Of a stretch of DNA of 64,000 nt, positions 18,866 to 48,934 are shown in pieces. Positions within the stretch are counted from its first letter, which is position 1. The number at the start of each line of letters is the position of its first letter. The position numbers and the translations under genes are program-made. The stretch lies in the NCBI GenBank assembly GCA_012960845.1, contig DUAN01000157.1:6739-70738 (forward strand). The letters run 5' to 3'. Origin of the DNA: Planctomycetota bacterium (GTDB lineage Bacteria; Planctomycetota; UBA8108; UBA1146). A model generated the notes under the pieces. The model saw only the letters and a list, made by a program, of their open reading frames with translations, searched no databases and was not told the DNA's origin.

Positions 18866-20914
<2,049 letters not shown>

Positions 20915-20931
20915 TCACGGGAGGAGCCACT

Positions 20932-22032
20932 GTGCGCAAGATCGATCCAGACACCAATCGGTTCCGCAACATCGTACGCGGTAAGATACGCGAGAATCTC
21001 AAGCAATACGTCTCTCAGGGAGAGCTACTGGCTCGCCAGGGCAAGAAGGTCGTCAGCGTCCCTTTGCCCCAGATCGATATCCCCAACTTCAGATTCGGTG
21101 ATTCCCAGCAGGGTGGTGTGGGGATGGGCGATGGAGAGGTGGGCGAGCCGATCGGCGAAGAGCAAGGCCCTCCAGGTGCTGAAGCTGGAGATCAGCCTGG
21201 AGAGCATGTCATCGAGGTAGATGTTTCCCTCGAGGAACTCGCCGAGATCCTCGGTGAGGAGCTGGAATTGCCACGGATCGAGCCTCGGGGAACCGAATCG
21301 GTCAAGGTCGAAAAGGATCGTTACACCGGCATCAATCGTAATGGCCCCGAATCACTGCGCCACTTTCGACGCACTTTCAAGGCGGCGTTGAGGCGCCAGA
21401 TTGCCAGTGGCTCCTACGATCCAAAGAATCCAAAAGTGATCCCGGTTCGAGAGGATCGAAGGTACCGATCGTGGAACACGAAGCAGGTTCCTCAGTCCAA
21501 TGCTGTGATCATCTACATGATGGATGTTTCCGGATCGATGGGGAATGAGCAGAAGGACATCGTCAGGATCGAATCCTTTTGGCTCGACACATGGCTGCAA
21601 AGTCAGTACGAAAATATCGAGACCAGATACATCATTCACGATGCCCAGGCGAAACTGGTCGATGCGCACACCTTCTTCCATGTCCGGGAATCGGGCGGAA
21701 CCAAGATTTCAAGTGCCTACAACCTGGCCAAAGAACTGATACAGAAGGAGTTTTCTCCGGTCGAATGGAACATCTACCCGTTCCACTTCTCCGATGGAGA
21801 CAACTGGGGTGGAGATGATACCGCCCAGTGCATCCGCTTGCTTCAAGAGGACCTGATCCCGGCCAGTAACGTGTTCTGTTACGGCCAGGTCAAGAGTGCT
21901 TACGGCAGTGGTCAGTTCATCAAGGATCTTCGAGAGGGAGTGGGCCAGGACGAAAAGGTACTGGTTTCAGAGATCAATTCCCGCGATGAGATCCTGCCGT
22001 CGATCAAGACCTTCCTCGGGAAGGGATGCTGA
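20932..22032 (+). CDS. yhbH: DUF444 protein YhbH/YeaH (vWA-like)
   Basis: The GTG start has a GGGAGGAG RBS. It matches the DUF444 family (YIMDVSGSM vWA MIDAS-like motif) and holds the conserved position between prkA and spoVR. Confidence 0.8.
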
Positions 22033-23531
22033 AGATGTTGAGGAACAGAGAACTCACGCCTGAAATCGAGGAATGGCGCCAGACCATCCGCCAGTATGCG
22101 GTGGATTGTGGGCTCGACTTCTTCGAGGTTCTCTACGAGCTGGTGGATTACGATGAGATGAACATGATTGCGTCGTATGGCGGATTTCCTGTTCGCTATC
22201 CGCACTGGCGCTGGGGAATGCAGTTCGAGGAGTTACAGAAACAGTACTCCTACGGCCTGGCAAAGATCTACGAACTGGTGATCAACAATGATCCTTGCTA
22301 CGCATATTTGATGCGTTGCAATCCACTGGTCGATCAAAAACTCGTCATGGCTCACGTATATGGGCACAGCGACTTCTTCAAGAACAACTGCTGGTTTGCA
22401 CATACAAACCGCAAGATGGTCGACACCATTTCCAACCACGCAGTCAGAATTCGCAGGCATATCGACGACCAGGGGCAGGATGTGGTCGAGGAGTTCATCG
22501 ATGTTTGCCTGTCCCTTGAAAATTTGATCGATCCGCACCTGCCGTACTTCGCTGCAGGCGAGAAGCAGAGTGAAGAGACGCTGGATCTGGCGCGGAACGA
22601 GGCGCAGGGGGTTCGATTCGCGGCCAAGCCATACATGGAGGAGTTCGTCAATCCTGCCGAGGTGCTGGCAAAAGAGAAAGCAGCGATCCTCAACAAGATC
22701 GATGAATCGGAGAAGTTCCCCGAAGATCCAGAAAAGGACGTGCTGAACTTCCTGCTCCATCATGGCCAGTTGCGAAGGTGGCAGCGAGACGTCCTGTCGA
22801 TCATCCGGGAAGAAGCGTACTACTTCGCTCCCCAGGGAATGACCAAGATCATGAACGAGGGCTGGGCTTCTTACTGGCATTCCAACATGATGACCCGGAA
22901 CATCCTCGATGCGTCTGAACTGATCGATTACGCCGACCACCACTCGGGCACCCTTGGGAGCAGCCCCGGTGTGTTGAATCCTTATAAGGTGGGTATCGAG
23001 TTATTCCGGGATATCAAGATGCGGTGGGACATGGGGCGCCACGGAAAAGAATGGGAGTCCTGCGAAGATGTTCATGGCAAGAAGGAATGGGATCGGGACG
23101 AAGATCTGGGCCTGAAGAAGATCTACGAGGTGCGCAGCACTCACAATGACATCACCTTCATCGACGAGTTCCTCACCGAAGAATTTTGCGACCAGCACAA
23201 GATGTTCACCTACAAGTTCGATCGACAGACAGGGAAGTACATCCTCGATGGGAGGGACTTCTCCTCGATCAAGTTGGCATTTCTCGATCAGTTGTCAAAC
23301 TGTGGTAGACCGAGAATTCAGGTGCAGGATGGTAACTATGGCAACAGGGGCGAACTGTTGTTGAAGCACATCTGGTCCGGTACCCCGCTGAAACTCGATT
23401 ACGCGACTCGCACACTGGAAAATCTCTACAAACTGTGGGGGCGTCCGGTATTTCTCGAGACCATCATCGAGGGAAAGACCAAGGTGCTGGGCTTCAACGG
23501 CAGTGCTCACGACGAGAAATCGAGCGCCTGA
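22026..23531 (+). CDS. spoVR: SpoVR/YcgB family protein
   Basis: It overlaps the yhbH stop. Its N-terminus [31 protein letters not shown]... is typical of the SpoVR family. Confidence 0.85.
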
Positions 23532-23705
23532 GCGGCTCTGGGCGGCCGGATGAGTTGTCGATAATCGCTCCATTCCGATATATCTGTGACTTCTGGCCCG
23601 CTCGACTTGAAAAATCGAGCCATCTCTTCGATGATGCAGGGTGTCGGAGGGTGCCAGAGGGGATCTCCTTCGACCTCGGTGATCTTCCCCTGGCCAGGAG
23701 TCCTG

Positions 23706-26700
23706 ATGCGTCCGGTCCGATTTGTCACCGCGGCCAGTCTCTTTGATGGCCACGACGCTTCCATCAACATCATGCGACGGGTCCTTCAGGACCGGGGCGC
23801 TGAGGTAATTCATCTGGGGCACAACCGGAGTGCCGAGGAGATCGTCGATACCGCAATTCAGGAAGATGCGGATGCCATCGCAGTGTCTTCCTATCAGGGT
23901 GGTCATAACGAGTTCTTTCGGTTCATGAGAGATCTTCTGGTGGAGAAGGGATGCCCCTGGATTCGTATCTTTGGCGGTGGCGGAGGTGTCATCGTTTCCG
24001 AAGAGATCGCCGCATTACACGAGTATGGTATCGAGCGGATCTATTCTCCAGAGGATGGTCGAGACATGGGCCTCGAGGGGATGATTCTTGACATGCTCAA
24101 ACGCGTCGGCTCCATCGAAGGAGCGGCGGACCGCGGAGCGGCACTTCCGCAACGAATCACCAGGGTCGAACTGGGAGAAGAGATCGAGACCAAGCCACAG
24201 GTAGTTCCGGTTGTGGGGTTAACTGGAACCGGTGGTGCAGGGAAATCATCTTTGACCGATGAACTCTTGAGAAGGTTGCTGCAAGATTTTCCGGATCGAA
24301 GATTTGCAGCGATCACCGTCGATCCGACCAAGAGGAGAACCGGCGGAGCATTACTGGGAGATCGGATTCGGATCAACAGTGCCGACAATCCCAGGGTATA
24401 TATTCGATCGCTGGCGACCCGGTCGAGTGGAGTAGAGGTTCCCGAGGCGATCCGAGGAGCGGTGGATCAACTCCGTTCAGAAGGCTTTGATCTGGTGTTG
24501 CTGGAGACATCCGGAATTGGCCAGGGGGACAGCCGGATCACCGATATCTCCGATCTGTCCGTCTATGTGATGACCCCTGAGTATGGAGCCGCAACTCAGC
24601 TCGAAAAGATCGACATGATCGATTTCGCCGACATCGTCGTCCTCAACAAGTTCGATCGTCCCGGTGCTCGTGATGCCATTCGAGATGTTCGCAAACAATA
24701 CCGGAGAAGCCGCGGTATTTTTGATCCAGACATCCGTGACGAGGATCTACCGGTATTCGGAACTACCGCCAGTCACTTCAATGATGAGGGGGTGGAACAG
24801 TTCTACACTCATCTTCTCGCCAGCCTGACCTCGGAAGAATCGGATCGATGGAACATCTCTCATGATCGCATCTCGGTAGACGGTGCCAGCAGGCCTTCGC
24901 CGATCCCACAGGAACGAGTGGGATACTTGCTTGAAATCGCCAATTCGATTCGCGACTACCATCAATGCGTCGAAAGCTCAGCACAGTTATCTGACGATGC
25001 CGAATCTCTGGGAAGAAGTTCGGAATTGATCGAGGCGGAAAACCCGGAGGCGAGCGCTCGATTGAGTGAGATGGCGATGACATTGCAGGGATCCATCGAT
25101 CCTCGAGTCCTCCAGTTGATTACACAGTGGCCAGCGCTGGCGGAGTCCTACCGGCAAGAGGAACTGGTTTTCCAGGTTCGAGATCGGGAAGTCCGGGAGC
25201 CACTTCAGTTCGAGTCTCTCTCGGGAAGTCACATCTCGAGGGTCTCCCTCCCCACCTTCAAGGGGCATGGAGATCTGACCCGCTGGTTGATGAAAGAAAA
25301 TCTGCCAGGGCACTTCCCCTTCACCGCAGGTGTCTTCCCATTTCGCCGAAGAGATGAGCACCCCAAGAGGATGTTCGCGGGTGAGGGACCTCCCGAGAAA
25401 ACCAACCAGAGGTTTCACTATCTGTGCGAAGGAGAGGACGTTCATCGGCTCTCCACTGCTTTCGATTCAGTCACGCTGTATGGCGAGGATCCAGATCCAC
25501 GTCCCGACATCTACGGAAAGGTCGGTGAAAGCGGCGTCAGCATCTGCAATCTGGAGGACATGAAGAAGTTGTACGCAGGTTTCGACCTGTGTGCTGCGAG
25601 TACCTCGGTCTCGATGACCATCAATGGTCCAGCGCCGATGATCCTGGCGATGTTCTTCAATGCGGCCTTTGACCAGCAGATCGAACTCCATCGCCAGAAA
25701 ACGGCATCTGATCCGTCTCCTGCTCAACTGGAGGAGATCAGATCTCATGTTCTTCGCAGCGTCCGGGGAACGGTACAGGCGGACATCCTCAAGGAGGACC
25801 AGGCGCAGAACACATGCATCTTCAGCACCGATTTTGCGCTGCGGATGATGGGGGATATCCAGCAGTTCTTCATCGATGAACAGGTCAGGAACTACTACTC
25901 GGTATCGATCAGCGGATATCACATCGCCGAAGCGGGTGCCAATCCCATCACGCAATTGGCTTTCACCCTGGCAAACGGTTTCACCTACGTTGAGAACTAC
26001 CTCTCACGAGGAATGTCGGTCGATGACTTCGCCCGCAACCTCTCCTTCTTCTTTTCCAACGGTCTCGATGCGGAATATTCCGTTCTGGGGAGAGTCGCTC
26101 GGAGGATCTGGGCCATCGCCATGCGTGATGTGTACGGCGCAAATGAGCGCAGTCAGAAGTTGAAGTACCACATCCAGACTTCAGGGCGATCGCTCCATGC
26201 GATGGAGATTGATTTCAACGATATTCGAACAACGCTTCAAGCGTTGATGGCGTACTACGACCAGTGCAATTCACTTCATACCAATGCCTTTGATGAGGCA
26301 ATTACCACTCCGACCCAGGATTCAGTTCGCAGAGCGATGGCCATCCAGTTGATCATTGCCGAGGAACTGGGGCTGGCCCGAAACGACAACCCGATTCAGG
26401 GTGCCTTCATCACCGATGAACTGACAGAACTGGTAGAAGATGCGGTGCTGGAAGAATTCCGACGCCTGCATGAACGTGGTGGCGTGTTGGGAGCGATGGA
26501 AAGACAGTACCAGCGCTCGAAGATTCAGGAGGAATCACTCCTCTACGAGCACAGAAAGCACACTGGCGAGCTTCCCATCGTCGGCATCAACACATTCTTG
26601 CGTCCCGGTGGCAGCCCGCAACCGAGTCATATCGAACTGCGCCGTGCGACTGCGGATGAGAAGAAGCAACGGATGGTGGATCTGGGGCAGTTCCATGATG

Positions 26701-26864
26701 ACCATCGTAGTGAAGTGGAGACTGCACTGCAGAGTTTGCAGCAGGTGGCCCTTACTGGTGGAAACATTTTTCGTGAGTTGATTGAAACGGTGCGAGTCGC
26801 AAGTCTCGGGCAGATCACACATGCGCTCTATCAGGTCGGTGGAAGATACCGCCGCAACATGTGA
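23706..26864 (+). CDS. icmF: fused isobutyryl-CoA mutase IcmF (B12-binding domain + MeaB-like G-protein + mutase TIM-barrel)
   Basis: The N-terminal B12-binding domain carries DGHD...G. The central P-loop GTPase reads VVGLTGTGGAGKSSL, and the C-terminus is a methylmalonyl-CoA-mutase-type substrate domain. About 1050 aa is typical of IcmF. Confidence 0.85.
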   Translation: MRPVRFVTAASLFDGHDASINIMRRVLQDRGAEVIHLGHNRSAEEIVDTAIQEDADAIAVSSYQGGHNEFFRFMRDLLVEKGCPWIRIFGGGGGVIVSEEIAALHEYGIERIYSPEDGRDMGLEGMILDMLKRVGSIEGAADRGAALPQRITRVELGEEIETKPQVVPVVGLTGTGGAGKSSLTDELLRRLLQDFPDRRFAAITVDPTKRRTGGALLGDRIRINSADNPRVYIRSLATRSSGVEVPEAIRGAVDQLRSEGFDLVLLETSGIGQGDSRITDISDLSVYVMTPEYGAATQLEKIDMIDFADIVVLNKFDRPGARDAIRDVRKQYRRSRGIFDPDIRDEDLPVFGTTASHFNDEGVEQFYTHLLASLTSEESDRWNISHDRISVDGASRPSPIPQERVGYLLEIANSIRDYHQCVESSAQLSDDAESLGRSSELIEAENPEASARLSEMAMTLQGSIDPRVLQLITQWPALAESYRQEELVFQVRDREVREPLQFESLSGSHISRVSLPTFKGHGDLTRWLMKENLPGHFPFTAGVFPFRRRDEHPKRMFAGEGPPEKTNQRFHYLCEGEDVHRLSTAFDSVTLYGEDPDPRPDIYGKVGESGVSICNLEDMKKLYAGFDLCAASTSVSMTINGPAPMILAMFFNAAFDQQIELHRQKTASDPSPAQLEEIRSHVLRSVRGTVQADILKEDQAQNTCIFSTDFALRMMGDIQQFFIDEQVRNYYSVSISGYHIAEAGANPITQLAFTLANGFTYVENYLSRGMSVDDFARNLSFFFSNGLDAEYSVLGRVARRIWAIAMRDVYGANERSQKLKYHIQTSGRSLHAMEIDFNDIRTTLQALMAYYDQCNSLHTNAFDEAITTPTQDSVRRAMAIQLIIAEELGLARNDNPIQGAFITDELTELVEDAVLEEFRRLHERGGVLGAMERQYQRSKIQEESLLYEHRKHTGELPIVGINTFLRPGGSPQPSHIELRRATADEKKQRMVDLGQFHDDHRSEVETALQSLQQVALTGGNIFRELIETVRVASLGQITHALYQVGGRYRRNM

Positions 26865-36228: not shown

Positions 36229-36756
36229 TGTTTCCTCCTCGGTTCTGGCACTGTTTTACAGCACATCTAGCCGAACCGGATTTTTTTTCAAAAACAGTGG
36301 TCCGACTTTCCATCCGTTCCGGATCTATGGGGAAGTGAACGCTTGGTTGCCGTCTGGAACCCGTGTCCAGATGGGGCGTTCTGTTGCTCTTGAGGGATGG
36401 GATGGCAGGATCACGGATCCGGTCCGTATTCTGCGAATTGGTCATGAGGATACGATCTATCACCAATGAGGCCTTGTGCTGGAACCCTGTTCCGCATTGG
36501 ATCGGGCAGATGACATCTGGCTCGACACCGCCTCTTTCTCCACGGACTCCTCGTTCACTTCCACTGCTCATCCCACTGGTCATCCCACTGGGTCGCCGCT
36601 CCAGCGTGAGCGGGTGCAATATCCCCGAGCCAGAAGTTTCTCGCCAGCCAGCCACAAATTATAAAAATCTCGTACCCGATAGGTTTGGGTACTTTGCCAC
36701 TTCCCGTTGGATCAGAAATAAGTCTGGTCGTCTCGGGAAATCAGAAAGGGGACACC

Positions 36757-39700
36757 ATGTCCTTGCCCAGGTTCCTGGCGGCAGTTGCCGCATGTTTCCT
36801 CCTGGGAGCATCCTCTCTGGCTCAAGTCATCGAGGATCGCCAACCAGGAGTCGTTGAACTCCAGATCGAGAGCTCCCGGATCACCGGGCTCGCTAGCCTC
36901 ATCACGGGGCCAGATGGAGCGCCGATTCCAGGTATTGAAGATCGGCTCGACCCGATCTCCATTTTCTCCATCCATGGGCGCCTTTTTGGGATTACCGATG
37001 CCTCTTCTGAACTGCGCCGCATCAGCACCTCGTTGTGCGACCTGGGTAATGTTCATCATCGCTATCAGCAGATTTACCGAGGCATCGAGGTACTCACCGG
37101 TCAGGTGATCGTGCACCAGGATCCTCAAGGTCGCTTTCTTGCGGTCAACGGAGACTTCTACCCGATCCGCAGCCAGGTCCCGACTCAGCCCGATTTCTCC
37201 CTCGAAGATGCGATCTTTCTCGCCGCTGGAGAGATGAAGATTGAAAATCCACAAACCCTCGAAGAGAAGCTGGTGATCGTCGATCCCCGCTGGTACGGAG
37301 ATCCTTCCGATGGCCAGGTGCACCTCGCATGGCACATGGTGATCGGCTCGGAGCGAGTCCTGCCTCAGCATGTATTGATCGATGCCATCGATGGAGATCT
37401 GGTCGATTCCTGGCCTGCAGTGCATTCGGCGATCAATCGCCAGATCTACGATGGCTCCGGTGGTGGACTGCCGGGGATCCTCGCCAGGAACGAGGGAGGC
37501 GCGGCGACCGGTGACTCCAATGTCGATGCTATTTACGACTTCACCGGAGATTTCTACCAGTTGTTGAATGCCGGACTGAACCGAGACAGCCTCGATGGAT
37601 CGGGCAATGCCCTGGTGGCCACGGCCAACTGGAATGATGGGATCTGCCCCAATGCGATCTGGAATGGCTCGGGCACTGCGTTCTGCAACGGTCTAGGAAC
37701 CGACGATATCGTCGGCCACGAATTTGGCCATGGACTGACCGATTACACCGCAGACCTGATCTATCAGAACCAGTCGGGGCAGCTCAACGAGTCCTTCTCC
37801 GACGTGTTCGGTGAACTGATCGATCTGTGGAATGGAAATGCTTCCGAAGCGGGCACTCCCGGTGGCGCCCCATGGCCCCCCAGCCCGACAGGAGGCGGCA
37901 CCGATACACCCAACTCCGGTCGTACCGGCTGCGGAGATGCCTCAGTTCGGTGGTTGATGGGAGAGGACAGTTCACTCGGGGCGATCCGCGACATGTGGTC
38001 TCCTCAATGCATGGGGGATCCTCCCAGTGCTCTCGATCCGATCTACGAATCCACCAGTTGTGACCCTGGATTTGATGGTGGTGGCGTACACTTCGGTTCT
38101 GGAGTTCCCAATCATGCATTTGCCATGGTCACCGACGGCAAGAGTTTTAACGGACAAACCGTCACGGGAATCGGAGCCATCAAGTCGGCCGCAGTGTGGT
38201 TCAGAACTTTGACCGTATACCTGACACCAGGATCCGATTTCAACCAGGCCTACACGCTGTTCAATCAAGCCGCCAGTGATCTGGTCGGCACCACGCCCAA
38301 TGATCCACGAACTGGTGGGCCATCCGCATCCTCCTTCACCTCTGACGATGCATTGCAGATTCAAAATGCACTGATCGCGGTAGAGATGAATGCCGCAGGT
38401 ATTTGCTCACCGCCTCCTCCGCCCGACAATGACGATTGTGTCACTGCAACGGTGGTCGCTGCGGGGATCATCCCCATCGACAACAGCGGTGGAACCAATA
38501 GCGGAGTTTTGGCCGATGAAAGCCAGTGCTCCGGCACATTCCTCGGACAGGTGGCCAAGGATATCTGGTTCAGTTACACACCCGCACAGGATGGCACGGT
38601 GACCCTCTCAACCTGCAACATCGCCAGCTGGGATACTGATGCAGTGGTCTACACCGGCAGTTGCTCTTCGTTAACCCAGGTCGCCTGCAACGGCGACGCC
38701 ACAGGTTGTAGCAACTGGACCTCCATCATCGAGAACATGGCGGTGACCGGAGGAACCAATTACAAGATTCGCATCGGAAGTTACGGCTCCAGTGGTGGAT
38801 CTGGTGAGATGGATCTCACCTTCACACCCGGTGGTGGATCTCCAGTAGAGGTCTGCAACAACGGGGTGGATGACGACGGCGACGGTTTCATCGACTGTTC
38901 CGACTCCGATTGTGCTCTCGACCCTGCATGTAGCTCCACTCCGCCAGAAGATTGCACCAACGGTGTCGATGACGATGGAGATGGAGCGACCGATTGCGCC
39001 GATCCCGATTGTGTCGGCGATCCTGCCTGTGTGGCCACTGCCGATGGAGATGAGTGCGTCGATGCGATTCTCGCCACCCTCGGAAGTAACGGTGTAAATT
39101 CGGTGGGTGCGACCGATTCGATCGATCTTTCCGACCCTGCGCAGTGCCCCAGCACCTTCCTCGGGGGCTTTTACCAGGACATCTGGTACAGCTTCATTCC
39201 CGCCACTGACGGGTTATTCACCGTGAGCCTTTGCGGCACGGTCACCTTCGACTCCGATGTGTCGATCTACGTCGGTACCTGTGGTGCCCTCGATCAGATC
39301 GCCTGTAATGGAGACGGAGCCGGCTGCCCGGGCTTCAGTTCGTTACTCTCCGATGTCCCGGTGACTGCTGGAATCGAGTACAAGATCAGGGTCGGTGGCT
39401 GGAATGATGGAGCCAATGGTACCGGAACGATGGAACTCACGCTGGTCGGAGGCACCACCGAGAATTGCACCAACGGTATCGACGACGATCTCGACAGTTT
39501 GATCGATTGTGAGGATCCCGATTGCTCTGGTGATCCCGCCTGCATCCCGTTCCCTGCGGATGAGTGCGCCACCTCGATCGCTGCCATCATCGGTTCGAAT
39601 CCGATCGACACATCGGGCGCTACCGATAGTGGAGATCTTGTCGCTCCCTGTAGCGGTTCATTCATCGGGTTGATGAGTCAGGACATCTGGTACAACTTCC

Positions 39701-41073
39701 AGCCGCCCTCCAACGGCAATCTGATCATCTCTACCTGTGGAACAGTTGGGTTTGATTCGAGTCTGATCGTTTACCAGGGGAGTTGCGGAGCCCTGGTTCA
39801 GGTCGCTTGCGACGGAGATTTCTGTGGGCTGGCGTCCGAGGTGATGCTGCCAGTCAACGGAGGTGAGCAGCTCAAGATACGCTTCGGTTCTGCAGTTGCA
39901 GGAGTGGGCGGTATCGGTTCGTTACAGATCGACATGGTGGTACCTCAACCCGAAGATTGCAGCAATGGTATCGATGACGATCTCGATAGCCTGGTCGATT
40001 GCCTCGATCCGGACTGTGCCACAGATCCGGTTTGTACCTGCGATCCGATCTCTGGCTTCACTTGTGATCAGGGTGCAGGTCTCGAGGTACTCCTCGGTTG
40101 GGTCAATGGCGAGAGCTATGACCAGATCCAGCTGGTTCGGGATGGTTCCTTGCTGGCCAATCTGCCAGGTACCGCGACCAATTACCTGGACGCTTCCACT
40201 CCGATCGGGGTGCGGACCTACATGGTGACCGGGTACTGCGGAGGATCTCAGGCGACCGCCATCTGCGATGTTCTGGTCGAGATGCCAGCGGGTTACCGCT
40301 TTGTCGCACCCCAGGTGTCTGGTGAGTTCGACGAACTCAGTGGAGTCGGGACAGTGACGGCTGCCATCTCCATCGGAGAAGAAACTAACAACCCAGGATT
40401 CCCCAATGAAACACAGGGGTTCTCGATGTCGCTGGCTCATGATCCGGGTGTACTGACGGCCGTCGCCTTGCAGTCGGCTCCGATACTGGCCGTGATGAAC
40501 GGTGCCAGTGGTCCCGACTTCATGTCAGAGGCGCTCCTTCCTGGCGGCTTCACCGTCGGCGTCGTGTACAGTTTTCCTGGTACCGAGACCCTTGCATTCG
40601 CCAGTGACACCGAGGTTCTGGTCGTCTCTTACGACACCAATGCGCCGGCCATCGCCGGATCTTCTGTAGCCGTTTCTTCGTCACTCCAGTGGGTGAGCAC
40701 CATCGGAACCAGCACCGTCGAGAATATTGTGGTCGTGAATGGGGCCGGCTACCTGGCAGATCTGATCGATGGAACGGTGACGCTCGATCCCGTGGCTCCC
40801 GGCGGATTCAACCGTGGGGACTGCAATGTCGATGCGGGATTCGACATCGCAGACATCATCCATCTGCTCGATGGTCTGTTCGGCGGGGGAAGTTTCTCCT
40901 GTGTTTCAGCCTGTGATTACAACGATGATGCCCTGGTCAATGTTGCGGATCCGATTTACGGCCTGACCAGTCTGTTCAGCGGTGGCATTCCTCCGGCAGC
41001 GCCGCACGGTTTCTGTGGCCCGGATCCGACGGCAGACACCCTCGATTGCGTCCTCTACGACGCCTGTAACTGA
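36757..41073 (+). CDS. secreted multidomain M4 (thermolysin-like) zinc metalloprotease with PPC-like domains, Cys-rich repeats and C-terminal dockerin
   Basis: It has a signal peptide, the HEFGHGLTDY (HExxH) motif plus NESFSDVFGE for the third Zn ligand, and four PPC-like modules. It carries four copies of CxNGxDDDxDxxxDCxDxDC and a C-terminal dockerin-like pair (DCNVDAGFDIADIIHLLDGLF; DYNDDALVNVADPIYGL). Confidence 0.8.
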   Translation: MSLPRFLAAVAACFLLGASSLAQVIEDRQPGVVELQIESSRITGLASLITGPDGAPIPGIEDRLDPISIFSIHGRLFGITDASSELRRISTSLCDLGNVHHRYQQIYRGIEVLTGQVIVHQDPQGRFLAVNGDFYPIRSQVPTQPDFSLEDAIFLAAGEMKIENPQTLEEKLVIVDPRWYGDPSDGQVHLAWHMVIGSERVLPQHVLIDAIDGDLVDSWPAVHSAINRQIYDGSGGGLPGILARNEGGAATGDSNVDAIYDFTGDFYQLLNAGLNRDSLDGSGNALVATANWNDGICPNAIWNGSGTAFCNGLGTDDIVGHEFGHGLTDYTADLIYQNQSGQLNESFSDVFGELIDLWNGNASEAGTPGGAPWPPSPTGGGTDTPNSGRTGCGDASVRWLMGEDSSLGAIRDMWSPQCMGDPPSALDPIYESTSCDPGFDGGGVHFGSGVPNHAFAMVTDGKSFNGQTVTGIGAIKSAAVWFRTLTVYLTPGSDFNQAYTLFNQAASDLVGTTPNDPRTGGPSASSFTSDDALQIQNALIAVEMNAAGICSPPPPPDNDDCVTATVVAAGIIPIDNSGGTNSGVLADESQCSGTFLGQVAKDIWFSYTPAQDGTVTLSTCNIASWDTDAVVYTGSCSSLTQVACNGDATGCSNWTSIIENMAVTGGTNYKIRIGSYGSSGGSGEMDLTFTPGGGSPVEVCNNGVDDDGDGFIDCSDSDCALDPACSSTPPEDCTNGVDDDGDGATDCADPDCVGDPACVATADGDECVDAILATLGSNGVNSVGATDSIDLSDPAQCPSTFLGGFYQDIWYSFIPATDGLFTVSLCGTVTFDSDVSIYVGTCGALDQIACNGDGAGCPGFSSLLSDVPVTAGIEYKIRVGGWNDGANGTGTMELTLVGGTTENCTNGIDDDLDSLIDCEDPDCSGDPACIPFPADECATSIAAIIGSNPIDTSGATDSGDLVAPCSGSFIGLMSQDIWYNFQPPSNGNLIISTCGTVGFDSSLIVYQGSCGALVQVACDGDFCGLASEVMLPVNGGEQLKIRFGSAVAGVGGIGSLQIDMVVPQPEDCSNGIDDDLDSLVDCLDPDCATDPVCTCDPISGFTCDQGAGLEVLLGWVNGESYDQIQLVRDGSLLANLPGTATNYLDASTPIGVRTYMVTGYCGGSQATAICDVLVEMPAGYRFVAPQVSGEFDELSGVGTVTAAISIGEETNNPGFPNETQGFSMSLAHDPGVLTAVALQSAPILAVMNGASGPDFMSEALLPGGFTVGVVYSFPGTETLAFASDTEVLVVSYDTNAPAIAGSSVAVSSSLQWVSTIGTSTVENIVVVNGAGYLADLIDGTVTLDPVAPGGFNRGDCNVDAGFDIADIIHLLDGLFGGGSFSCVSACDYNDDALVNVADPIYGLTSLFSGGIPPAAPHGFCGPDPTADTLDCVLYDACN

Positions 41074-41140: not shown

Positions 41141-41311
41141 ATCGGAATCTGCTCGATGGTGGTCCGATATTGATCGGGGTGACCGGATGGACCGCCTGCG
41201 GTCCGCTTGCCCACCGCTGCGCTGGCTCCTACGATCTACCTGCTGACTTTCTCTCGCTTCGAGATCGATGTCACTCTCAGTCTTCAAGATTCGGAAGGTG
41301 GAACCAGTCTC

Positions 41312-42202
41312 ATGTCCTCACAAGTCTCTGAAGCCGCTCAACAACTGGTCAACTCGGTCGAACGGGTAGCGGTGGTCGGTGCCGGAACGATGGGCAATGG
41401 TATCGCCCAGGTGTTCGCACAGGCGGGTTATTCCGTCTTGATCATCGATCCCTTCGAGGGAGCTCTGGATCGAGCCCGTGGAACCATCGAAAACAGTCTC
41501 GGCAGGATGGTCAAAAAGGAAAAGATCACCGCTGAAGCGGCGCAGACGATCCTCGCCCGGATCACCTTCGAGGCGGGAATCGAAGCCGCTGCCGGTGCCA
41601 GTTGGGGGATCGAAGCGGTGCCCGAAAGTGAAGAACTGAAGGAGAAGGTGATCTCGGCCCTCGATGCGCAGATCGTAGATGGTGGAGTGATCGCATCGAA
41701 TACATCTTCCATCTCCATCACTCGTCTGGCCAATTACACCGGGCGACCGGAGTCCTTTGTCGGCATGCACTTCATGAATCCGGTGCCGATGATGAAGTTG
41801 GTCGAGGTGATTCGAGGGCACAAGAGTTCCGATACGGTGGTCGAAGCGACACTGGAACTCTCCCGTCGTCTCGGCAAGGAGCCGTGGGAGGCTCAGGATT
41901 ACCCCGGATTCGTCGCCAATCGTATCCTCGCACCGATGCTCAACGAGGCGGTCTACGCCTTGATGGAAGGTGTAGCGACCCGGGAGGCGATCGACGAGGT
42001 GATGAAACTGGGGATGGGCCATCCGATGGGACCACTGGCCCTGGCCGATTTCATCGGACTCGATGTTTGTCTCAACATCCTCGAACTACTGCAGGCTGAA
42101 CTGGGAGATCCGAAGTACCGTCCCTGCCCATTGCTCCGGAGAATGGTCGCCGCTGGTGATCTGGGGCGAAAGAGCGGACGCGGATTTTACGATTATTCGT
42201 GA
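41312..42202 (+). CDS. hbd: 3-hydroxybutyryl-CoA dehydrogenase
   Basis: It has VAVVGAGTMGNGIAQV as an NAD Rossmann motif and a 3HCDH C-terminal domain, with an RBS ggaaggtgga. Confidence 0.85.
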   Translation: MSSQVSEAAQQLVNSVERVAVVGAGTMGNGIAQVFAQAGYSVLIIDPFEGALDRARGTIENSLGRMVKKEKITAEAAQTILARITFEAGIEAAAGASWGIEAVPESEELKEKVISALDAQIVDGGVIASNTSSISITRLANYTGRPESFVGMHFMNPVPMMKLVEVIRGHKSSDTVVEATLELSRRLGKEPWEAQDYPGFVANRILAPMLNEAVYALMEGVATREAIDEVMKLGMGHPMGPLALADFIGLDVCLNILELLQAELGDPKYRPCPLLRRMVAAGDLGRKSGRGFYDYS

Positions 42203-42218
42203 GCGAAAGGTGTGATCG

Positions 42219-43418
42219 ATGCGCGATGACGAGACCTCTGCTGGGATCGATGGAAGCCTGGGTGCCATGCTCGGCACTACCCTCTCTCCTGAGCACTCGA
42301 AACTGCAGCAAACATGCCGGGAGTTTGCCGATGAGGTGCTGATTCCTGCGGCTGATCTACACGATCGGGAGGAATCCTATCCGGCCAGGAATGTCGATCG
42401 GCTGGCGAAGCTGGGAATGATGGGAATCCTCGCTCCGGTCCGCTTCGGTGGCCTCGGCATGGACAATCTCGGACTTTGTCTGGCACTCGAGGAGATCAAC
42501 CGTGGATGCGCATCCACCGGGGTCACTCTTTCGGTTCATAACTCACTCCTCTCCAGTCCATTGCTCCACTTCGGAACAGAAGCACAGCAGGAGAAATTCT
42601 TTCCACGTCTCGCCAGTGGTGAATCGCTGGGTGCCTATGCCATCACAGAACCGGATCATGGCTCGGACGCGGTGGGTATCGAGACCACCTGTCGTCGCGA
42701 GGGCGATGAATGGGTTCTCAACGGAACCAAGGCCTGGATCACCAATGGTTCCCATGCCTCGATCGTCATCACCTTTGCCACCATCGATCCCTCGATGCGT
42801 TCGCGCGGCATCCATGCCTTCGTGATCGAGAACACCATGCCTGGCTTCTCGGTCGGAAAGAAGGAGAAGAAACTGGGAATCCGCGGCTCGGATACGGTGC
42901 AACTGGTATTTGACGAGATGAGAGTTCCGGCAGAAAACCTGCTCGGAGAAGAGGGGCAGGGCTTCAAGATTGCCATGCATACCCTCGACGGAGGGCGGAT
43001 CGGAATTGCCACACAGGGGGTCGGAATCGCCCAGGCGTGTCTCGATGCCACCGTTTCTTTTGCCGAGGGCCATCAGATGTTTGGTCGGAAACTGGCGGAC
43101 AATCAACTCGCCTCACACAAGATTGCCGACATGGCGACCCGCATCGAGGCGGCTCGGTTGTTGACGGTCCGTGCCGCACTGCTCAAGGACGCAGGTCTAC
43201 CTCATTCTCGACAGGCTTCGATGGCCAAGTTGAGTGCTTCCGAGATCGCCAACGATGCCGCTCGCATGGCTCTCGAAATTCACGGAGGAGCGGGGCTGGG
43301 ACGACAGAATCCAGTCGAAAGGCTCTTTCGCGATGCCAAGATCACCGAAATTTACGAGGGAACCAGTCAGATTCAGCGCCTGGTCATCGCTCGTCATGTT
43401 CGACCGGGTCGGGGGTGA
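42219..43418 (+). CDS. acyl-CoA dehydrogenase (short/branched-chain type)
   Basis: It shows the ACAD fold with YAITEPDHGSD and the catalytic region IYEGTSQIQRLVIAR. Confidence 0.85.
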   Translation: MRDDETSAGIDGSLGAMLGTTLSPEHSKLQQTCREFADEVLIPAADLHDREESYPARNVDRLAKLGMMGILAPVRFGGLGMDNLGLCLALEEINRGCASTGVTLSVHNSLLSSPLLHFGTEAQQEKFFPRLASGESLGAYAITEPDHGSDAVGIETTCRREGDEWVLNGTKAWITNGSHASIVITFATIDPSMRSRGIHAFVIENTMPGFSVGKKEKKLGIRGSDTVQLVFDEMRVPAENLLGEEGQGFKIAMHTLDGGRIGIATQGVGIAQACLDATVSFAEGHQMFGRKLADNQLASHKIADMATRIEAARLLTVRAALLKDAGLPHSRQASMAKLSASEIANDAARMALEIHGGAGLGRQNPVERLFRDAKITEIYEGTSQIQRLVIARHVRPGRG

Positions 43419-43421
43419 GAG

Positions 43422-44348
43422 TTGGACGACTCTGAAATCAACGATCTGATCGTTGGCATCTCGAAAGGCTCGCGCCGCGAACTTGCTCGTGCGATCACCG
43501 TGGTCGAAGAAGATGAATCGGTCGCAGATGCACTGCTGGCCCGATTACCCGAAACGACATGTGCGTTTCGGCTCGGCTTGACCGGTGCTCCAGGAGTGGG
43601 GAAATCGTCACTGATCGCGAAACTGGTGCCACGATTGATCGAGAACGGCGAACGAGTGGCGGTTCTCGCCATCGATCCGAGTAGCCCCATCACCGGAGGA
43701 GCGCTGCTGGGAGATCGGGCGCGGATCGGCACCGATCTGGGTGAAGACTGCTGGTTTCGAAGCATCGCTTCCCGGGGTGCGACCGGTGGAGTGGCGGGTT
43801 GCACCGATCTCGCCGCTGAAATACTGGCGCGTGCCGGATTTGGACTGATCCTCATCGAAACGGTCGGAGTCGGGCAACTCGAGGTCGAGATCACCGATGA
43901 AACCGATCAAGCATGGCTGCTATTGTCACCAGAATCTGGTGACGGAATACAACTCCTCAAGGCGGGCGTGTTGGAGGTGGTTGACCGGGTGCTGGTGAAC
44001 AAATGCGATCGGCCAGGGGCGGATGAGTTGCTTCGCAGGGCTGAAGAGATGGCCCATGACCAGAATGGCCTCGAGCCGATGGCCGTCAGCAGTCTCCAGG
44101 GAGATGGAATCGACGAGATCGTTGCCGTGATCCTCGAGTCCGCCAGGAAACATCGAGAATCGCCGGACCTCGGTGCCGTTCGGTCACGTCTGGTGCGTCG
44201 GATTCGTCGCAGAGCTGAACAGGAATGGATCCGCAAGGGTCTCGGCCTGGCTGGAGGTACCAAGGCGATCGAACAACTCGCAGATCGAGTTTCTCGCCAG
44301 GAGATCTCGATCCAGCAGGCCATCGAGTCGATCGTGTCCGCTGGTTAA
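43422..44348 (+). CDS. meaB: methylmalonyl-CoA mutase-associated GTPase (MeaB/ArgK family)
   Basis: The TTG start is 3 nt after the acd stop. It has the P-loop GLTGAPGVGKSSL, VLAIDPSSP..GGALLGDRARI and NKCDR. Confidence 0.8.
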   Translation: MDDSEINDLIVGISKGSRRELARAITVVEEDESVADALLARLPETTCAFRLGLTGAPGVGKSSLIAKLVPRLIENGERVAVLAIDPSSPITGGALLGDRARIGTDLGEDCWFRSIASRGATGGVAGCTDLAAEILARAGFGLILIETVGVGQLEVEITDETDQAWLLLSPESGDGIQLLKAGVLEVVDRVLVNKCDRPGADELLRRAEEMAHDQNGLEPMAVSSLQGDGIDEIVAVILESARKHRESPDLGAVRSRLVRRIRRRAEQEWIRKGLGLAGGTKAIEQLADRVSRQEISIQQAIESIVSAG

Positions 44349-44363
44349 GATCAATATCGAGTA

Positions 44364-45545
44364 GTGGTCCAGGCCCACCTGGATAAACGGAAGGTTCATG
44401 TCGTGATCCGCTTCGAAGAACATCATCAAGAAATTCGACAGATGGTTGCCGATTTCGCCGACAACGAGATTGCTCCAAAAGCTCAGCACATCGATGAATC
44501 CCAGGAGACTCCCACCGATGCCATCGCACAGCTGGCAGAACTGGGAATGCTCGGACTCACCATCGAGGAGCAGTTTGGTGGAGCCGAACTCGACCTCCTC
44601 AGCGCCTGTCTGGTAGTGGAAGAGATTTCACGCTGTTGTGGTTCGACTGGAGTGGTGGTGGCATCGCACCTGTTCGAGGGAACCGCAGCGATCAAGAACC
44701 TGGCGGATGATGCTGGCCGTGAACGCTGGTTGCCCGAAATGGCCAGCGGCAAGACGTTGGCGACCTTTGCCCTGGCGGAAGTCGAGGCGGAGTCGGATGC
44801 ATCGGGAATCACCTGCTCGGTCGGGCAGGAACCTGACGGATTCTCCCTTCATGGCCGGAAGAGCTGGGTGATCGGCGGATTGATGGCGAATCTGGTGACC
44901 GTGGTGGCCAGAAATGGTGAGGATCAATTGCAGGATCTCGGAGCTTATGTGGTCGATCCCACCTCCGAAGGATGCACGAGGAAACCGCTGCGAGATGTTC
45001 TGGGCCTGCGTGGAGCGGGCTTCTGCGATCTTCACCTCGATGGTGTTCGAATCGAATCTCATTCTGCGCTCTCGGGATCGACATCCGGCTGGCCCGCCAT
45101 CTCGCGTGTGGTGGAGATGTCTCGCCTCGGTGCGGCTTCGGTGATTCTCGGGGTCGCCCGGGGAGCGATCAGCCACGCGCTCCAGTATGCTTCGCAACGA
45201 AAAGCGTTCGGCAGGAGTATCGATCGATTCGGATCGATCCGAGCGATGCTGGCAGAAGCGGCGACCGGCGTCGAGAGCGCCAGGTTATTGCTGTGGCGAG
45301 CGGCAGGCCTCTACGATCGGGGAAAATCGGCGACTCGAGAGGGTTCGATGGCAAACTTGGCAGCGAAGCAGGCCTCCTATCGAGCGACCCGTGATGCGGT
45401 TCAAGTGCTGGGGGGGAACGGATACAGTCGTGAGTATCCGGTCGAGCGAGCGTACAGGGATGTTCAGACTGCGGTCCCCTTTGGCGGCGGCGAGGATCTA
45501 CAAAAGATCATCGTATCCCGATCCTTGATAGGAGCTCGTTCATGA
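44364..45545 (+). CDS. acyl-CoA dehydrogenase
   Basis: It shows the ACAD fold (FALAEVEAESDASG..., ...VLGGNGYSREYPVERAYRD). The start codon is uncertain (GTG 44364 or nearby). Confidence 0.8.
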   Translation: MVQAHLDKRKVHVVIRFEEHHQEIRQMVADFADNEIAPKAQHIDESQETPTDAIAQLAELGMLGLTIEEQFGGAELDLLSACLVVEEISRCCGSTGVVVASHLFEGTAAIKNLADDAGRERWLPEMASGKTLATFALAEVEAESDASGITCSVGQEPDGFSLHGRKSWVIGGLMANLVTVVARNGEDQLQDLGAYVVDPTSEGCTRKPLRDVLGLRGAGFCDLHLDGVRIESHSALSGSTSGWPAISRVVEMSRLGAASVILGVARGAISHALQYASQRKAFGRSIDRFGSIRAMLAEAATGVESARLLLWRAAGLYDRGKSATREGSMANLAAKQASYRATRDAVQVLGGNGYSREYPVERAYRDVQTAVPFGGGEDLQKIIVSRSLIGARS

Positions 45546-46726
45546 AAAGTGCCGTGATCTGTTCCGCGGTCAGAACCCCCATCGGAAAGTTCCTTGGCGG
45601 TTTGTCATCTCTTTCGCCGGCAGACCTCGGGGTGGCGGCAGTAGTTCCTGCACTTGAACGTGCCGGGATCTCTCCGGACCGGGTCGATGAGTTACGATTT
45701 GGTTGCGGTCGCCAAGCGGGTGGCGGCCCCAATGTGGCGCGCCAGATCGCCGTCAGATCGGGGATTCCCGTATCCTCCACCGCCGTCACCATCAACATGG
45801 CCTGTGGATCTGGATTGCTCTCCATCATCGAGGCTCGCGATGCCATCGAGCGTTCGGATGCTCAGGTGATGGTGGCTGGAGGGACCGAGAGCATGTCGCA
45901 ACTTCCCTTCTACCTGCTCGGTGCCCGTAAGGGATATCGCCTCGGTCAGGGTGAAATGGTCGATGGGATGTACCGCGACGGTTTTCACTGTCCGATGGCG
46001 GACCAACTGATGGGTGCGACTGCGGAAAACCTCGCAGAAGAGTTTTCCATCGATCGTCAAGAACAGGACGCTTACGCAGTCGAGAGTCAGCAGCGTTGTC
46101 AGAGGGCCAGACAAGAGGGTCGTTTCTGCGAGGAGATCGCCGCGGTGGAAATCCCAGGACGAAAGGGTGTGACGGTGGTGGACACCGATGAGCATCCGAG
46201 GGACGGCGCGACCATCGAGGGATTGGCGCGGTTGAAGCCGGTGTTCAAGAGTGGTGGATCGATCCATGCCGGTAATTCATCGGGGATCACCGATGGAGCT
46301 TGCGCGCTGGTCATCGCAGATGAAGAAGTGGCTCGCAGCGAGGGGTGGCCGATCCTGGCGACCCTCGGAGCATCGGCACGTGCTGGAGTCGAGCCGCAGA
46401 GAATGGGCATCGGACCTGTGCCGGCGATTCGCAAGTTGCTGGAAAAGACCGGACAAAAGATCGAGGACTTTGACCTGGTCGAGTTGAACGAGGCGTTTGC
46501 CGCCCAGGTGATCGCTTGCCTCAGGGAACTCCCGATCGATTCTGAACGACTCAATGTCAACGGTGGATCCATCGCACTCGGTCACCCCATCGGGGCGACC
46601 GGGGCCAGGATCACCACCACCTTATTGCATGAGTTGAGGCGAAGAGGAGGGGGCAAGGGACTCGCGACACTATGCATCAGTGGCGGCATGGGACTGGCAC
46701 TGGAGATCGATGTTCACGGCCGCTAG
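45542..46726 (+). CDS. acetyl-CoA C-acetyltransferase (thiolase)
   Basis: It has VICSAVRTPIGKF, the catalytic Cys region NMACGSGL and a C-terminal GGG motif. It overlaps the acd stop. Confidence 0.9.
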   Translation: MKSAVICSAVRTPIGKFLGGLSSLSPADLGVAAVVPALERAGISPDRVDELRFGCGRQAGGGPNVARQIAVRSGIPVSSTAVTINMACGSGLLSIIEARDAIERSDAQVMVAGGTESMSQLPFYLLGARKGYRLGQGEMVDGMYRDGFHCPMADQLMGATAENLAEEFSIDRQEQDAYAVESQQRCQRARQEGRFCEEIAAVEIPGRKGVTVVDTDEHPRDGATIEGLARLKPVFKSGGSIHAGNSSGITDGACALVIADEEVARSEGWPILATLGASARAGVEPQRMGIGPVPAIRKLLEKTGQKIEDFDLVELNEAFAAQVIACLRELPIDSERLNVNGGSIALGHPIGATGARITTTLLHELRRRGGGKGLATLCISGGMGLALEIDVHGR

Positions 46727-47646: not shown

Positions 47647-47938
47647 CTCCCACGTCAGCGTATCTGGCGGAGGGGCATCCGGCTGTGGAGTATCGGGAGT
47701 CGATGCCTCGGGAGGTGGAGTTTCGGATCCTTCAATCTCGTCCAATTTGCACCTCCCGGGAGCGCGCCACCGGGTGCACCGCCGATCGGTACAATTCTCT
47801 GGTTGGGAACTCCTGGCTGCGAGGGTACCATCGTTTAAGCCCATCGTTGAGGGGATCGGTAGCAGGACCAATGCAAGTTTCTGAATGCACGTTTATGTAA
47901 GCAGGCTGCGTATGCGGGCCGTGGAGAGGAACATCATC

Positions 47939-48934
47939 ATGAACGATTCCCCAGCCGAGATCTCTGGCAGCGGATTTCCCCTCACGGCCCCCAGTTCTTC
48001 CCAGTTGCAACAACTGGTCGAAAAACTGACCCCAGAACAACACCATGTCACGCAGAAGTCGGGTACGGAGGCGCCCTTTTGTGGTGGCCATCTGACGGAG
48101 AAGAGTGCCGGAGTCTATGGCTGTGTGGTGTGTCGATTGCCGTTGTTTCGATCGAGCGACAAGTTCGACTCTGGCAGCGGTTGGCCCTCCTTCTGCGATA
48201 CCTATGATGCCCAGCATGTGACCAGAAAAAGCGATGCAAGCGGCGGCATGGTTCGCACCGAGATCACCTGTCGACGATGTGATGCCCACCTCGGTCATGA
48301 ATTTCCCGACGGCCCGCCTCCCACCGGGATCCGCCACTGCCTCAATTCTCTCGCTCTCCACTTCTGGGCCGAAGGGGAGGCGATTCCACGAGAGATTCCA
48401 CGAGAGATTTCACGAGCGATTTCCGATGCGACCGATGCGCCGGCTACCCCCGATGCCGATCTGGCCATCGCATGGTTTGGCGGCGGCTGATTCTGGGGGA
48501 TGGAGGACCGCTTTGCGGCTCTCGATGGCGTCGTCGATGTCATCACCGGATACATGGGAGGGCATCTGGATCACCCCTCCTACGAGCAGGTTTGCAGTGG
48601 CCAGACCGATCATGCCGAGACGGTGGAGATCCACTATCACCCGCAGCAGGTGACCTACACTGATCTGGTGAAACTGTTCTTCGAACTACACGATCCCACC
48701 ACCCAGGATCGGCAAGGCCCCAATGTCGGGAGTCAGTATCGTTCGGTGGCCTTTTGCAACGATCCGGATGAACAGCAACAGGTGCAGCAACAGATCGAAC
48801 GACGGGTAGCAGAAGGTGTGTGGCGCGGTCGAAGCTGCTGCACTCAGGTCATCTTCCCGGCGCCAACCTTCTGGCGAGCGGAGGAGCATCACCAGGACTA
48901 CTACAAGAAGCATCGAGGCTTCTGCTCCCACTGA
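47939..48934 (+). CDS. msrBA: fused peptide-methionine sulfoxide reductase MsrB-MsrA with in-frame TGA (candidate selenocysteine) at the MsrA catalytic position
   Basis: The MsrB half has GSGWPSF, two CxxC zinc-binding pairs (CVVCRLP, CRRCDAH), LGHEF and RHCLNS. The TGA at 48488-48490 is in the same frame, giving ...LAIAWFGGG[TGA]FWGMEDRF..GYMGG..PSYEQVCSG.TDHAETVEIHYHP, which is the MsrA active site GCFWG with Cys replaced by TGA. Both halves are in one frame. Confidence 0.6.
48383..48424. repeat. 3.5 copies of a 12-bp tandem repeat (attccacgagag) in the MsrB-MsrA linker
   Basis: Read directly. It encodes IPRE-IPRE-ISRA-IS. Confidence 0.85.

Follow-up and report, generated by a model that had tools for sequence, protein, structure and literature searches.

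A 64,000-nucleotide stretch of DNA from a Planctomycetota bacterium (assembly GCA_012960845.1, contig DUAN01000157.1, positions 6,739 to 70,738 of the forward strand; hereafter ‘the window’) carries a gene, msrBA, in which the coding sequences of two methionine sulfoxide reductases, MsrB and MsrA, share a single reading frame that is interrupted by one TGA triplet. This triplet occupies the catalytic position of MsrA and is a candidate codon for selenocysteine (Sec). The coding features of the locus are as follows.

47939-48934, + strand: msrB-(UGA)-msrA, whole gene, 331 codons plus a terminal TGA (single-frame translation, Pfam, NCBIfam)
47939-48487, + strand: MsrB (SelR) domain and inter-domain linker (PF01641, TIGR00357)
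48382-48421, + strand: in-frame tandem repeat of the linker, 12-nt unit GATTCCACGAGA, ~3.3 copies, encoding PREI/SREI (TRF)
48488-48490, + strand: in-frame TGA at the MsrA catalytic position (G-U-FWG), candidate selenocysteine codon
48491-48934, + strand: MsrA (PMSR) domain with its own TGA stop at 48932-48934 (PF01625, TIGR00401)

A fused gene interrupted at its second active site

The original prediction described an MsrB-like and an MsrA-like open reading frame (ORF) that lie in the same frame and are parted only by the TGA at 48488-48490, and both the translation and the domain matches bear this out. One frame runs across 47939-48934, reading MNDSPAEISGSGF...AWFGGG, the internal TGA, FWGMEDRFAALDGVVDVITGYMGG...HRGFCSH and the terminal TGA; the segment right after the internal TGA translates as FWGMEDRF, and the C-terminus is CSH. 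When cysteine is put in place of the internal stop, residues 30-142 match SelR (Pfam PF01641, E = 3.5e-44) and residues 178-326 match PMSR (Pfam PF01625, profile positions 2-148 of 153, E = 7.6e-54). The TGA can therefore be assigned to the catalytic cysteine position of the GCFWG motif, precisely where it had been placed at the outset. In addition, the G-G-G before and the FWG after the TGA together rebuild the complete GxFWG active-site motif.

With the same substitution, the best NCBIfam model is NF004042 (bifunctional methionine sulfoxide reductase B/A protein), whose score of 325.0 bits misses the curated equivalog cut-off of 330 bits by 5 bits. The domain-level models pass (TIGR00401 with 173 bits against a cut-off of 108, TIGR00357 with 150 against 113). 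MsrB followed by MsrA would form one polypeptide only if the UGA is decoded, and the predicted products are a protein of ~37 kDa on read-through and one of ~20 kDa (183 amino acids) on termination at the internal UGA.

The MsrB domain is of the Cys type. Its zinc motifs CVVC and CRRC (two CxxC) and the catalytic cysteine in RHCLNS are kept in all 17 members of the clade described below, and the usual site of the resolving cysteine, before GWPSF, is occupied by serine or threonine, which therefore marks a 1-Cys-type MsrB. The conserved start is ATG 47939; relatives (given L numbers here) start at the equivalent methionine just before ..SGF/SGH.., and an upstream ATG at 47885 is absent from L001. 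In the MsrA domain, the C-terminal cysteine of ..HRGFCSH is kept by the clade, L012 being the sole member without it. Judged by eye, this residue recalls the recycling Cys198 of Escherichia coli (..YGYCG..).

Two sites in the MsrB half vary between strains. At 48194-48196, adjoining the conserved GWPSF, the window strain reads GWPSFC where all other clade members read GWPSFF (TTC to TGC, Phe to Cys), a change common to metagenome-assembled genomes (MAGs) of the same strain (L003, L006, L009-L011 and L109). The linker repeat occurs at the same place in L002-L011, L101 and L105 with the unit variants PREI, SREI and PLEI, and its copy number is strain-variable: the window has one unit fewer than L003 and L011, and L101 and L105 have at least 7 units. 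Several NCBI MAG loci carry runs of N exactly at this repeat, which would explain why the MsrB gene is uncalled in those loci.

Conservation of the TGA among marine Planctomycetota

Relatives of the gene were collected from NCBI, JGI, ENA and Logan by taking the DNA of 8 protein-search clusters, a scan of GTDB species (3 more species) and a pattern scan of metagenomes (10 more loci). The resulting clade comprises 17 distinct sequences, includes 4 GTDB species and spans MsrA identities of 56-100%. At its near end, the 144-amino-acid ORF that begins at ATG 48500 is found verbatim in 10 NCBI MAG assemblies (nine in the range GCA_0299358xx-0299360xx, and GCA_015660695.1), all with the same TGA and with msrA 100% identical throughout; these 10 assemblies are one strain. 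The TGA is also present in a JGI contig that is 94% identical. A protein search with the MsrA part returned clusters from 96% down to 56% identity, almost all of exactly 144 amino acids (two are partial, with 88 and 126), and every cluster begins at the same Met or Val.

The codon for the nucleophile is TGA in 17/17 distinct clade sequences and never TAA or TAG. MsrB lies in frame upstream of it in 17/17, and the 147-codon MsrA downstream is intact, with neither frameshift nor second stop, in 16 of the 17, the contig of L001 ending early. By contrast with the clade, the same codon is TGC or TGT in 76/76 other homologues from the species scan (53% identity or less), a result that also confirms the assignment of the TGA to the catalytic cysteine. 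Among the matches listed from a search of 5.8 billion proteins, the top full-length Cys-type fusion is 51% identical. Retention of a UGA among orthologues, together with Sec/Cys pairing with homologues, is the standard comparative criterion by which selenoproteins are recognized, and both are found here.

The relatives share a gene order of thiolase, a small ORF, rsmG (minus strand) and msrBA, mostly followed by cstA (minus strand); in L013, L015/L016 and L018, cstA is preceded by an inserted FG-GAP gene. All derive from marine ‘Planctomycetota bacterium’ MAGs and from metagenomes, including isolate CB6_Bottom.63 (L020) and a hydrothermal-vent metagenome (L016), and our guess from the remaining sample names is that they are deep-sea or Arctic.

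The original prediction named a sequencing error or a pseudogene of a Cys-type msrBA as alternatives. A single change from TGC or TGT to TGA would suffice to produce either, and the 10 MAGs with the exact window sequence, being 100% identical in msrA, may represent one population. However, unrelated projects and assemblers have yielded the TGA in 17 distinct sequences, between which the pairwise synonymous divergence (dS) is at or near saturation (at least 1), and no frameshift or second stop is present in any 147-codon MsrA. Moreover, the ratio of nonsynonymous to synonymous divergence (dN/dS) of the MsrA part after the TGA is well under 1, at 0.10-0.33 (0.45 for one near-identical pair), alongside 0.04-0.2 for MsrB, which shows the MsrA part to be under purifying selection. 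An error, an assembly artefact or a recent pseudogene is thus effectively refuted by a TGA that is fixed across lineages near synonymous saturation in front of an intact MsrA.

Another possibility is that the locus holds two genes, of which the first, MsrB, ends at the TGA while the second, a Cys-less MsrA of 144 amino acids, starts 9 nt downstream by translational coupling and is either dead or repurposed (for example, as a module that binds methionine sulfoxide). Gene callers and the public annotation (NCBI, JGI) divide the gene in this manner, entering HIG05828.1 (‘MsrB’) and HIG05829.1 (a 144-amino-acid ‘MsrA’ that lacks the nucleophile) over 47912-48934, and all clade loci that came with gene calls show the same split. 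In 17/17 clade sequences, ATG or GTG stands as the fourth codon past the TGA, and the purifying selection on the downstream ORF would be expected for this arrangement as well.

Yet the annotated start, ATG 48500, is simply the Met/Val of the universal FWG[VM]E motif, a residue that the Cys-type MsrAs examined carry too. From the TGA to this position, the three codons read TTC TGG GGN (F-W-G) throughout the clade and change only synonymously, in the Gly codon, a pattern not expected of an untranslated 9-nt spacer; the complete GxFWG motif is rebuilt around the TGA; and the stop is invariably TGA despite saturated synonymous divergence. A separate downstream MsrA start with an intact cysteine, which the original prediction had listed as grounds for rejecting its proposal, is not what the start at 48500 provides, since it yields an MsrA without a nucleophile. 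We know of no activity for such a protein, and we give the two-gene arrangement a slim chance.

Reassignment of UGA throughout the genome was ruled out as an explanation, as had been argued from folP. TGA serves as an ordinary stop for 24/44 genes in the window, including folP (466-1344) and msrBA itself (48932-48934). No other stop-interrupted domain was found among 40 window ORFs on the basis of Pfam coverage; a mechanical scan for TGA-split ORF pairs returned ~170 candidates and was too noisy in a genome of 58% G+C.

Two hairpins follow the UGA codon

Two RNA hairpins lie immediately downstream of the UGA, within the MsrA coding sequence. The first of these is a candidate selenocysteine insertion sequence (SECIS).

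48503-48523, + strand: hairpin 1, candidate SECIS, GAGGACCGC-UUU-GCGGCUCUC (RNAalifold, pair counts)
48524-48544, + strand: hairpin 2, GAUGGCGUC-GUC-GAUGUCAUC, loop GUN (RNAalifold, pair counts)

The one-mismatch hairpin at 48503-48523 had been noticed in the original prediction, which remarked that it sits roughly where bacterial SECIS elements do. It does exist, with 8 pairs, a UUU loop and an unpaired A (48507, or A20) opposite C, and it begins 12 nt past the UGA. With the U of UGA as nt 1, hairpin 1 occupies nt 16-36 and its loop nt 25-27. Alignment of the 17 sequences with RNAalifold gives the consensus GAGGAYCGC-UUY-GCGRSCCUC for hairpin 1 (columns 16-36) and GAYGGYGUC-GUN-GAYGYNRUC for hairpin 2 (columns 37/38-56/57), which directly abuts it. 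Hairpin 1 is 100% paired over the 17 sequences, and its pair 21-31 is C-G in 7, U-A in 6 and U-G in 4. Hairpin 2 is 98.5% paired, and its pair 39-55 is C-G in 7, U-A in 5 and U-G in 5.

For both hairpins together, 99.3% of pair cells hold standard pairs, and 2 pairs are compensatory. In a control in which the partners were slid by 1-3 columns, pairing fell to 24-53%. The observed pairing or covariation was matched by 2/500 shuffles, a statistic that overstates the significance, the sequences being phylogenetically related and each covarying pair having one partner at a third codon position. Hairpin 1 is conserved and covarying, and its offset is the canonical one for a SECIS.

Constraint on this region is also apparent at the level of codons. 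The nucleotide sequence before the TGA is variable, as is the length of the linker, whereas ~45 nt after it are nearly invariant. We compared degenerate codons whose amino acid is invariant, 12 of which fall among the 19 codons that follow the TGA and 96 elsewhere. The mean pairwise synonymous difference is 0.20 in codons +1 to +19 versus 0.50 elsewhere (Mann-Whitney p = 8.7e-5), and 6/12 codons are completely invariant in the first group versus 4/96 in the second. Among the invariant codons are CGC, GCG, CUC and GAG of hairpin 1. The metagenome scan relied on a DNA pattern that admitted all synonymous alternatives at the codons it covered, and so the scan did not bias this comparison.

The two hairpins differ in their relationship to the protein sequence. 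The 3ʹ arm of hairpin 1 is formed by the codons for AALDGV or ASLDGV of the Sec clade (AAL/ASL being GCG GCC/AGC CUC), where Cys-type relatives have QQVPGV or AQLPGV. Cys-type homologues also have hairpin 2 in shorter form, because the codons of G-V-[VI]-D-A-V are intrinsically palindromic. We take hairpin 1 as the candidate SECIS core on account of its geometry, which closely resembles that of the E. coli fdhF SECIS, its occurrence at the same offset in independent lineages (see below) and its dependence on codons specific to the Sec clade, hairpin 2 being partly present in Cys-type genes. Hairpin 2 may be an accessory recoding element, or it may in part be a by-product of coding for DGVVDxV.

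The fdhF sequence used for comparison was confirmed by a 100% match in 5,413/5,420 matching E. coli records, annotated fdhF. When it is folded here and numbered in the same way, its upper stem-loop occupies nt 15-31 and the loop nt 22-25. Like the msrBA element, it is a stem-loop within an ORF, its upper hairpin starting 11 nt after the UGA (12 nt here), with an unpaired base on the 5ʹ side (U17 in fdhF, A20 here) and a small apical loop within nt 22-27. However, the loop is GGUC in fdhF and UUU or UUC here, and fdhF has no counterpart of the second hairpin with its GUN loop. The G23 and U24 of fdhF are needed for SelB binding. The model implemented in bSECISearch places the loop at a distance of ~16-37 nt from the UGA, a range into which the loop of hairpin 1 falls.

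Comparison with known reductases

Sec-containing MsrA with the motif GUFWG/H is an established family of bacterial selenoproteins, verified in Clostridium (Alkaliphilus) oremlandii (PMC13188914), and nine Sec-MsrA sequences were found in the Global Ocean Sampling (GOS) marine metagenome (PMC2398784). As in that family, and in C. oremlandii OhILAs in particular, the UGA of msrBA falls on the catalytic cysteine of GCFWG, and its candidate recoding signal is intragenic and just past the UGA. Unlike msrBA, C. oremlandii has a stand-alone enzyme, a 1-Cys-type MsrA that carries an additional helical domain at its C-terminus (PMC4333827), whereas the candidate Sec-MsrA described here is fused behind a Cys-type MsrB, occurs in Planctomycetota and keeps its C-terminal cysteine. 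The MsrA of the window matches the C. oremlandii structures 4lwj and 4u66 with E values of about 1e-20, versus 1e-31 to 1e-34 for the Cys-type structures 2j89, 4gwb and E. coli 1ff3. Because the C. oremlandii protein is only distantly related, the replacement of Cys by Sec probably took place independently in the two lineages.

The closest architectural relatives are bifunctional MsrB/A proteins (NF004042 / PRK05550) of Planctomycetota, Phycisphaerales and Acidobacteriota, which share the domain order, the position of the linker and 45-51% full-length identity with the window protein. The FWGVEDRF motif is common to the clade and to its nearest Cys-type relatives, but in all Cys-type fusions the nucleophile of MsrA is encoded by TGC or TGT. 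The MsrBA of Treponema denticola also belongs among the fusions in which MsrB precedes MsrA. The MsrAB proteins of Streptococcus pneumoniae (3e0m) and Helicobacter pylori (7e43), and PilB of Neisseria, likewise combine both activities in one polypeptide with homologous domains. However, in these proteins MsrA comes first and both sites carry Cys, so that a stop at the MsrA nucleophile would leave no functional N-terminal product. Cys-type fusions in either order are well known (PMC8000184).

Sec also serves as the nucleophile of methionine sulfoxide reductases in eukaryotes, as in mammalian MsrB1 (SelR/SelX) and the Sec-MsrA of Chlamydomonas, although the SECIS resides there in the 3ʹ untranslated region. 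In MsrB1 the Sec belongs to the MsrB fold, whereas here the MsrB site is Cys and the MsrA site is the candidate Sec.

The metagenome scan also yielded independent lineages of stand-alone Sec-MsrA, one represented by L107 and L112 (U-FWGVEDALSKLHGV) and another by L106, L113, L115, L117 and L118 (U-FWGVEDELAKTVGV). Their sequences after the UGA differ, and each has a hairpin apex at nt 25-30. A second MsrB-MsrA fusion, in which TGA again occupies the catalytic codon (U-FWGVEDRFQQVPGV) and the N-terminus is hydrophobic, was encountered at L100:1228-2352 (JGI contig Ga0114931_10014865). This fusion belongs to the Cys-type lineage, being 60-67% identical to homologues labelled Planctomycetota, Planctomycetales, Phycisphaerales or Phycisphaerae. 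Its TGA, seen in a single contig, is either an independent conversion of Cys to Sec or an error or pseudogene.

Decoding of the UGA codon

Several observations, to which the inflated shuffle statistic noted above can be added, weigh against Sec insertion directed by hairpin 1. Bacterial SECIS loops are described as typically containing a guanosine (PMC1088965), and the UUU/UUC loop of hairpin 1 has none; the loop that does bear GU is that of hairpin 2, at nt 46-48 in the numbering used above, farther out than both hairpin 1 and the fdhF loop (22-25). No Rfam match was obtained with the whole window at gathering thresholds or with 48440-48620 at E values up to 10. The folding energy is unexceptional (z = -1.16 for 73 nt; another value for the region is 0.07), and Cys-type homologues fold about equally stably (mean -20.9 versus -22.6 kcal/mol). 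The genuine fdhF SECIS is likewise unexceptional in this respect (z = -0.94), and hairpin 2 gives z = -2.7. Thermodynamics was therefore dropped as evidence, since z-scores fail to discriminate even the fdhF SECIS, and conservation and covariation were used instead.

The machinery for Sec insertion was likewise not seen near the gene. Pfam searches found no SelA, SelB or SelD domain among 40 ORFs of the window or in ~7 kb to its left and ~10 kb to its right, ARAGORN reported no tRNA at all in the 64-kb window, and no tRNA-Sec was seen there or in these flanks, the search being confined to the window, its flanks and related loci. Nothing Sec-related emerged from the tRNA search of 36 related loci. 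One ARAGORN call, a 99-nt ‘tRNA-Val(gac)’ at L100:8115-8213, was set aside as a probable false positive in apparently repetitive sequence. Within the phylum, full Sec machinery has been described for Gemmata obscuriglobus, Isosphaera pallida and two alga-associated planctomycetes (PMC4807772). About half of the MAGs from Challenger Deep encode selA, selB and selD (PMC8938466).

The UGA could also be decoded as an amino acid other than Sec, either by near-cognate read-through (Trp, Cys or Arg) promoted by the hairpins or by a dedicated UGA-to-Cys system, yielding an MsrA with Cys or another residue at the active site. A system of the latter kind, comprising a tRNA-Sec-like tRNA-Cys with a UCA anticodon and a SelB paralogue, has been described for some Deltaproteobacteria. 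All signs that MsrA is translated in frame, including the conserved hairpins, fit such decoding equally well, and both the U-rich, non-canonical loop without guanosine and the Sec machinery not found in the window and flanks speak in its favour. Against it, TGC and TGT are one substitution away, yet 0/17 distinct sequences have reverted, and low-level near-cognate read-through would waste most of the product. The offset of the hairpin equals that of the fdhF SECIS, and the site is a redox nucleophile, exactly where the known Sec-MsrA family exchanges Cys for Sec (PMC13188914). We therefore give non-Sec decoding a small probability.

Because conservation across a deep marine Planctomycetota clade extends to the UGA, the coding capacity downstream of it and the RNA hairpins, we favour the view that the gene encodes a bifunctional MsrB(Cys)-linker-MsrA(Sec) enzyme in which UGA is decoded as Sec. 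This reading of the comparative sequence data is the one put forward in the original prediction, and with the fixation of the TGA, the purifying selection on MsrA and the conserved hairpin in its support we consider it very likely to be correct.

A proposed mechanism for msrBA expression and function

If UGA is decoded as Sec, a complex of SelB, GTP and Sec-tRNA(Sec) would be recruited at the codon by hairpin 1, possibly with help from hairpin 2, and insertion of Sec would generate a 331-amino-acid enzyme with a GUFWG active site. The Sec residue would attack methionine-S-sulfoxide to form a selenenic acid, which could be resolved by the C-terminal cysteine (..HRGFCSH) and then thioredoxin, or be reduced directly. 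The MsrB domain would act on the R-epimer by ordinary Cys chemistry. Recoding would compete with release factor 2 (RF2) and would never be complete, such that terminating ribosomes would release an intact, stand-alone MsrB domain with its linker. In a study of an E. coli SECIS, UGA recoding is given as 30-40% and as selenium-dependent (PMC4513850).

Since the UGA sits exactly between a complete MsrB with linker and MsrA, a further and distinctly more tentative proposal is that the gene acts as a selenium switch. When selenium is available, the bifunctional MsrB-MsrA(Sec) might be made, and when it is not, termination by RF2 might free a functional 20-kDa MsrB. The stacked hairpins might then set the partition between the two products, their architecture representing a SECIS that is specific to the SelB of Planctomycetota and unlike the E. 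coli paradigm. We judge this scheme possible but doubtful.

Other genes in the window

The 40 ORFs scanned in the window encode housekeeping functions, among them folP, sucCD, mdh, dnaK, prkA-DUF444-spoVR, an IcmF-like mutase and a fatty-acid oxidation cluster. The trio prkA - DUF444 (yeaH-like) - spoVR (ycgB-like) lies directly downstream of dnaK at 18866-23531 (+). At 23586-26864 (+), a 1092-amino-acid fusion joins a B12-binding domain, a MeaB GTPase and a methylmalonyl-CoA-mutase domain into an IcmF-like fused acyl-CoA mutase. A second MeaB, which stands alone, is encoded downstream of this gene at 43422-44348, within a cluster of acyl-CoA dehydrogenase, thiolase and 3-hydroxyacyl-CoA dehydrogenase genes (41207-46726). 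Finally, an ORF of 1462 amino acids at 36685-41073 (+) specifies an M4 (thermolysin-like) peptidase that carries an FTP propeptide and faintly matches a domain associated with the type IX secretion system (T9SS).

Implications

Neither a Sec-containing fusion of MsrB and MsrA nor a Sec-MsrA from Planctomycetota was found in searches of the accessible literature. Bacterial Sec-MsrA is already known, also from marine metagenomes, and so what is new is the fusion to MsrB and the lineage only. The finding is useful for annotation and for the study of Sec/Cys evolution, and it will be no surprise to a selenoprotein specialist. Under the split annotation, metabolic and stress inferences for these Planctomycetota, which are abundant in the deep ocean, would overlook a selenoenzyme and list a dead MsrA by mistake.

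If the UGA is indeed read as Sec, the Sec-MsrA family would extend to the Planctomycetota and to the MsrB-MsrA fusion architecture, in which termination at the UGA would still yield a functional enzyme. The conserved double hairpin, whose apical loop lacks G, would offer a test case for the variability of SECIS recognition in bacteria. The conversion of Cys to Sec in this clade appears clean, ancient and unreversed, and with close Cys-type outgroups at hand it is a useful natural experiment on the reasons for keeping Sec.

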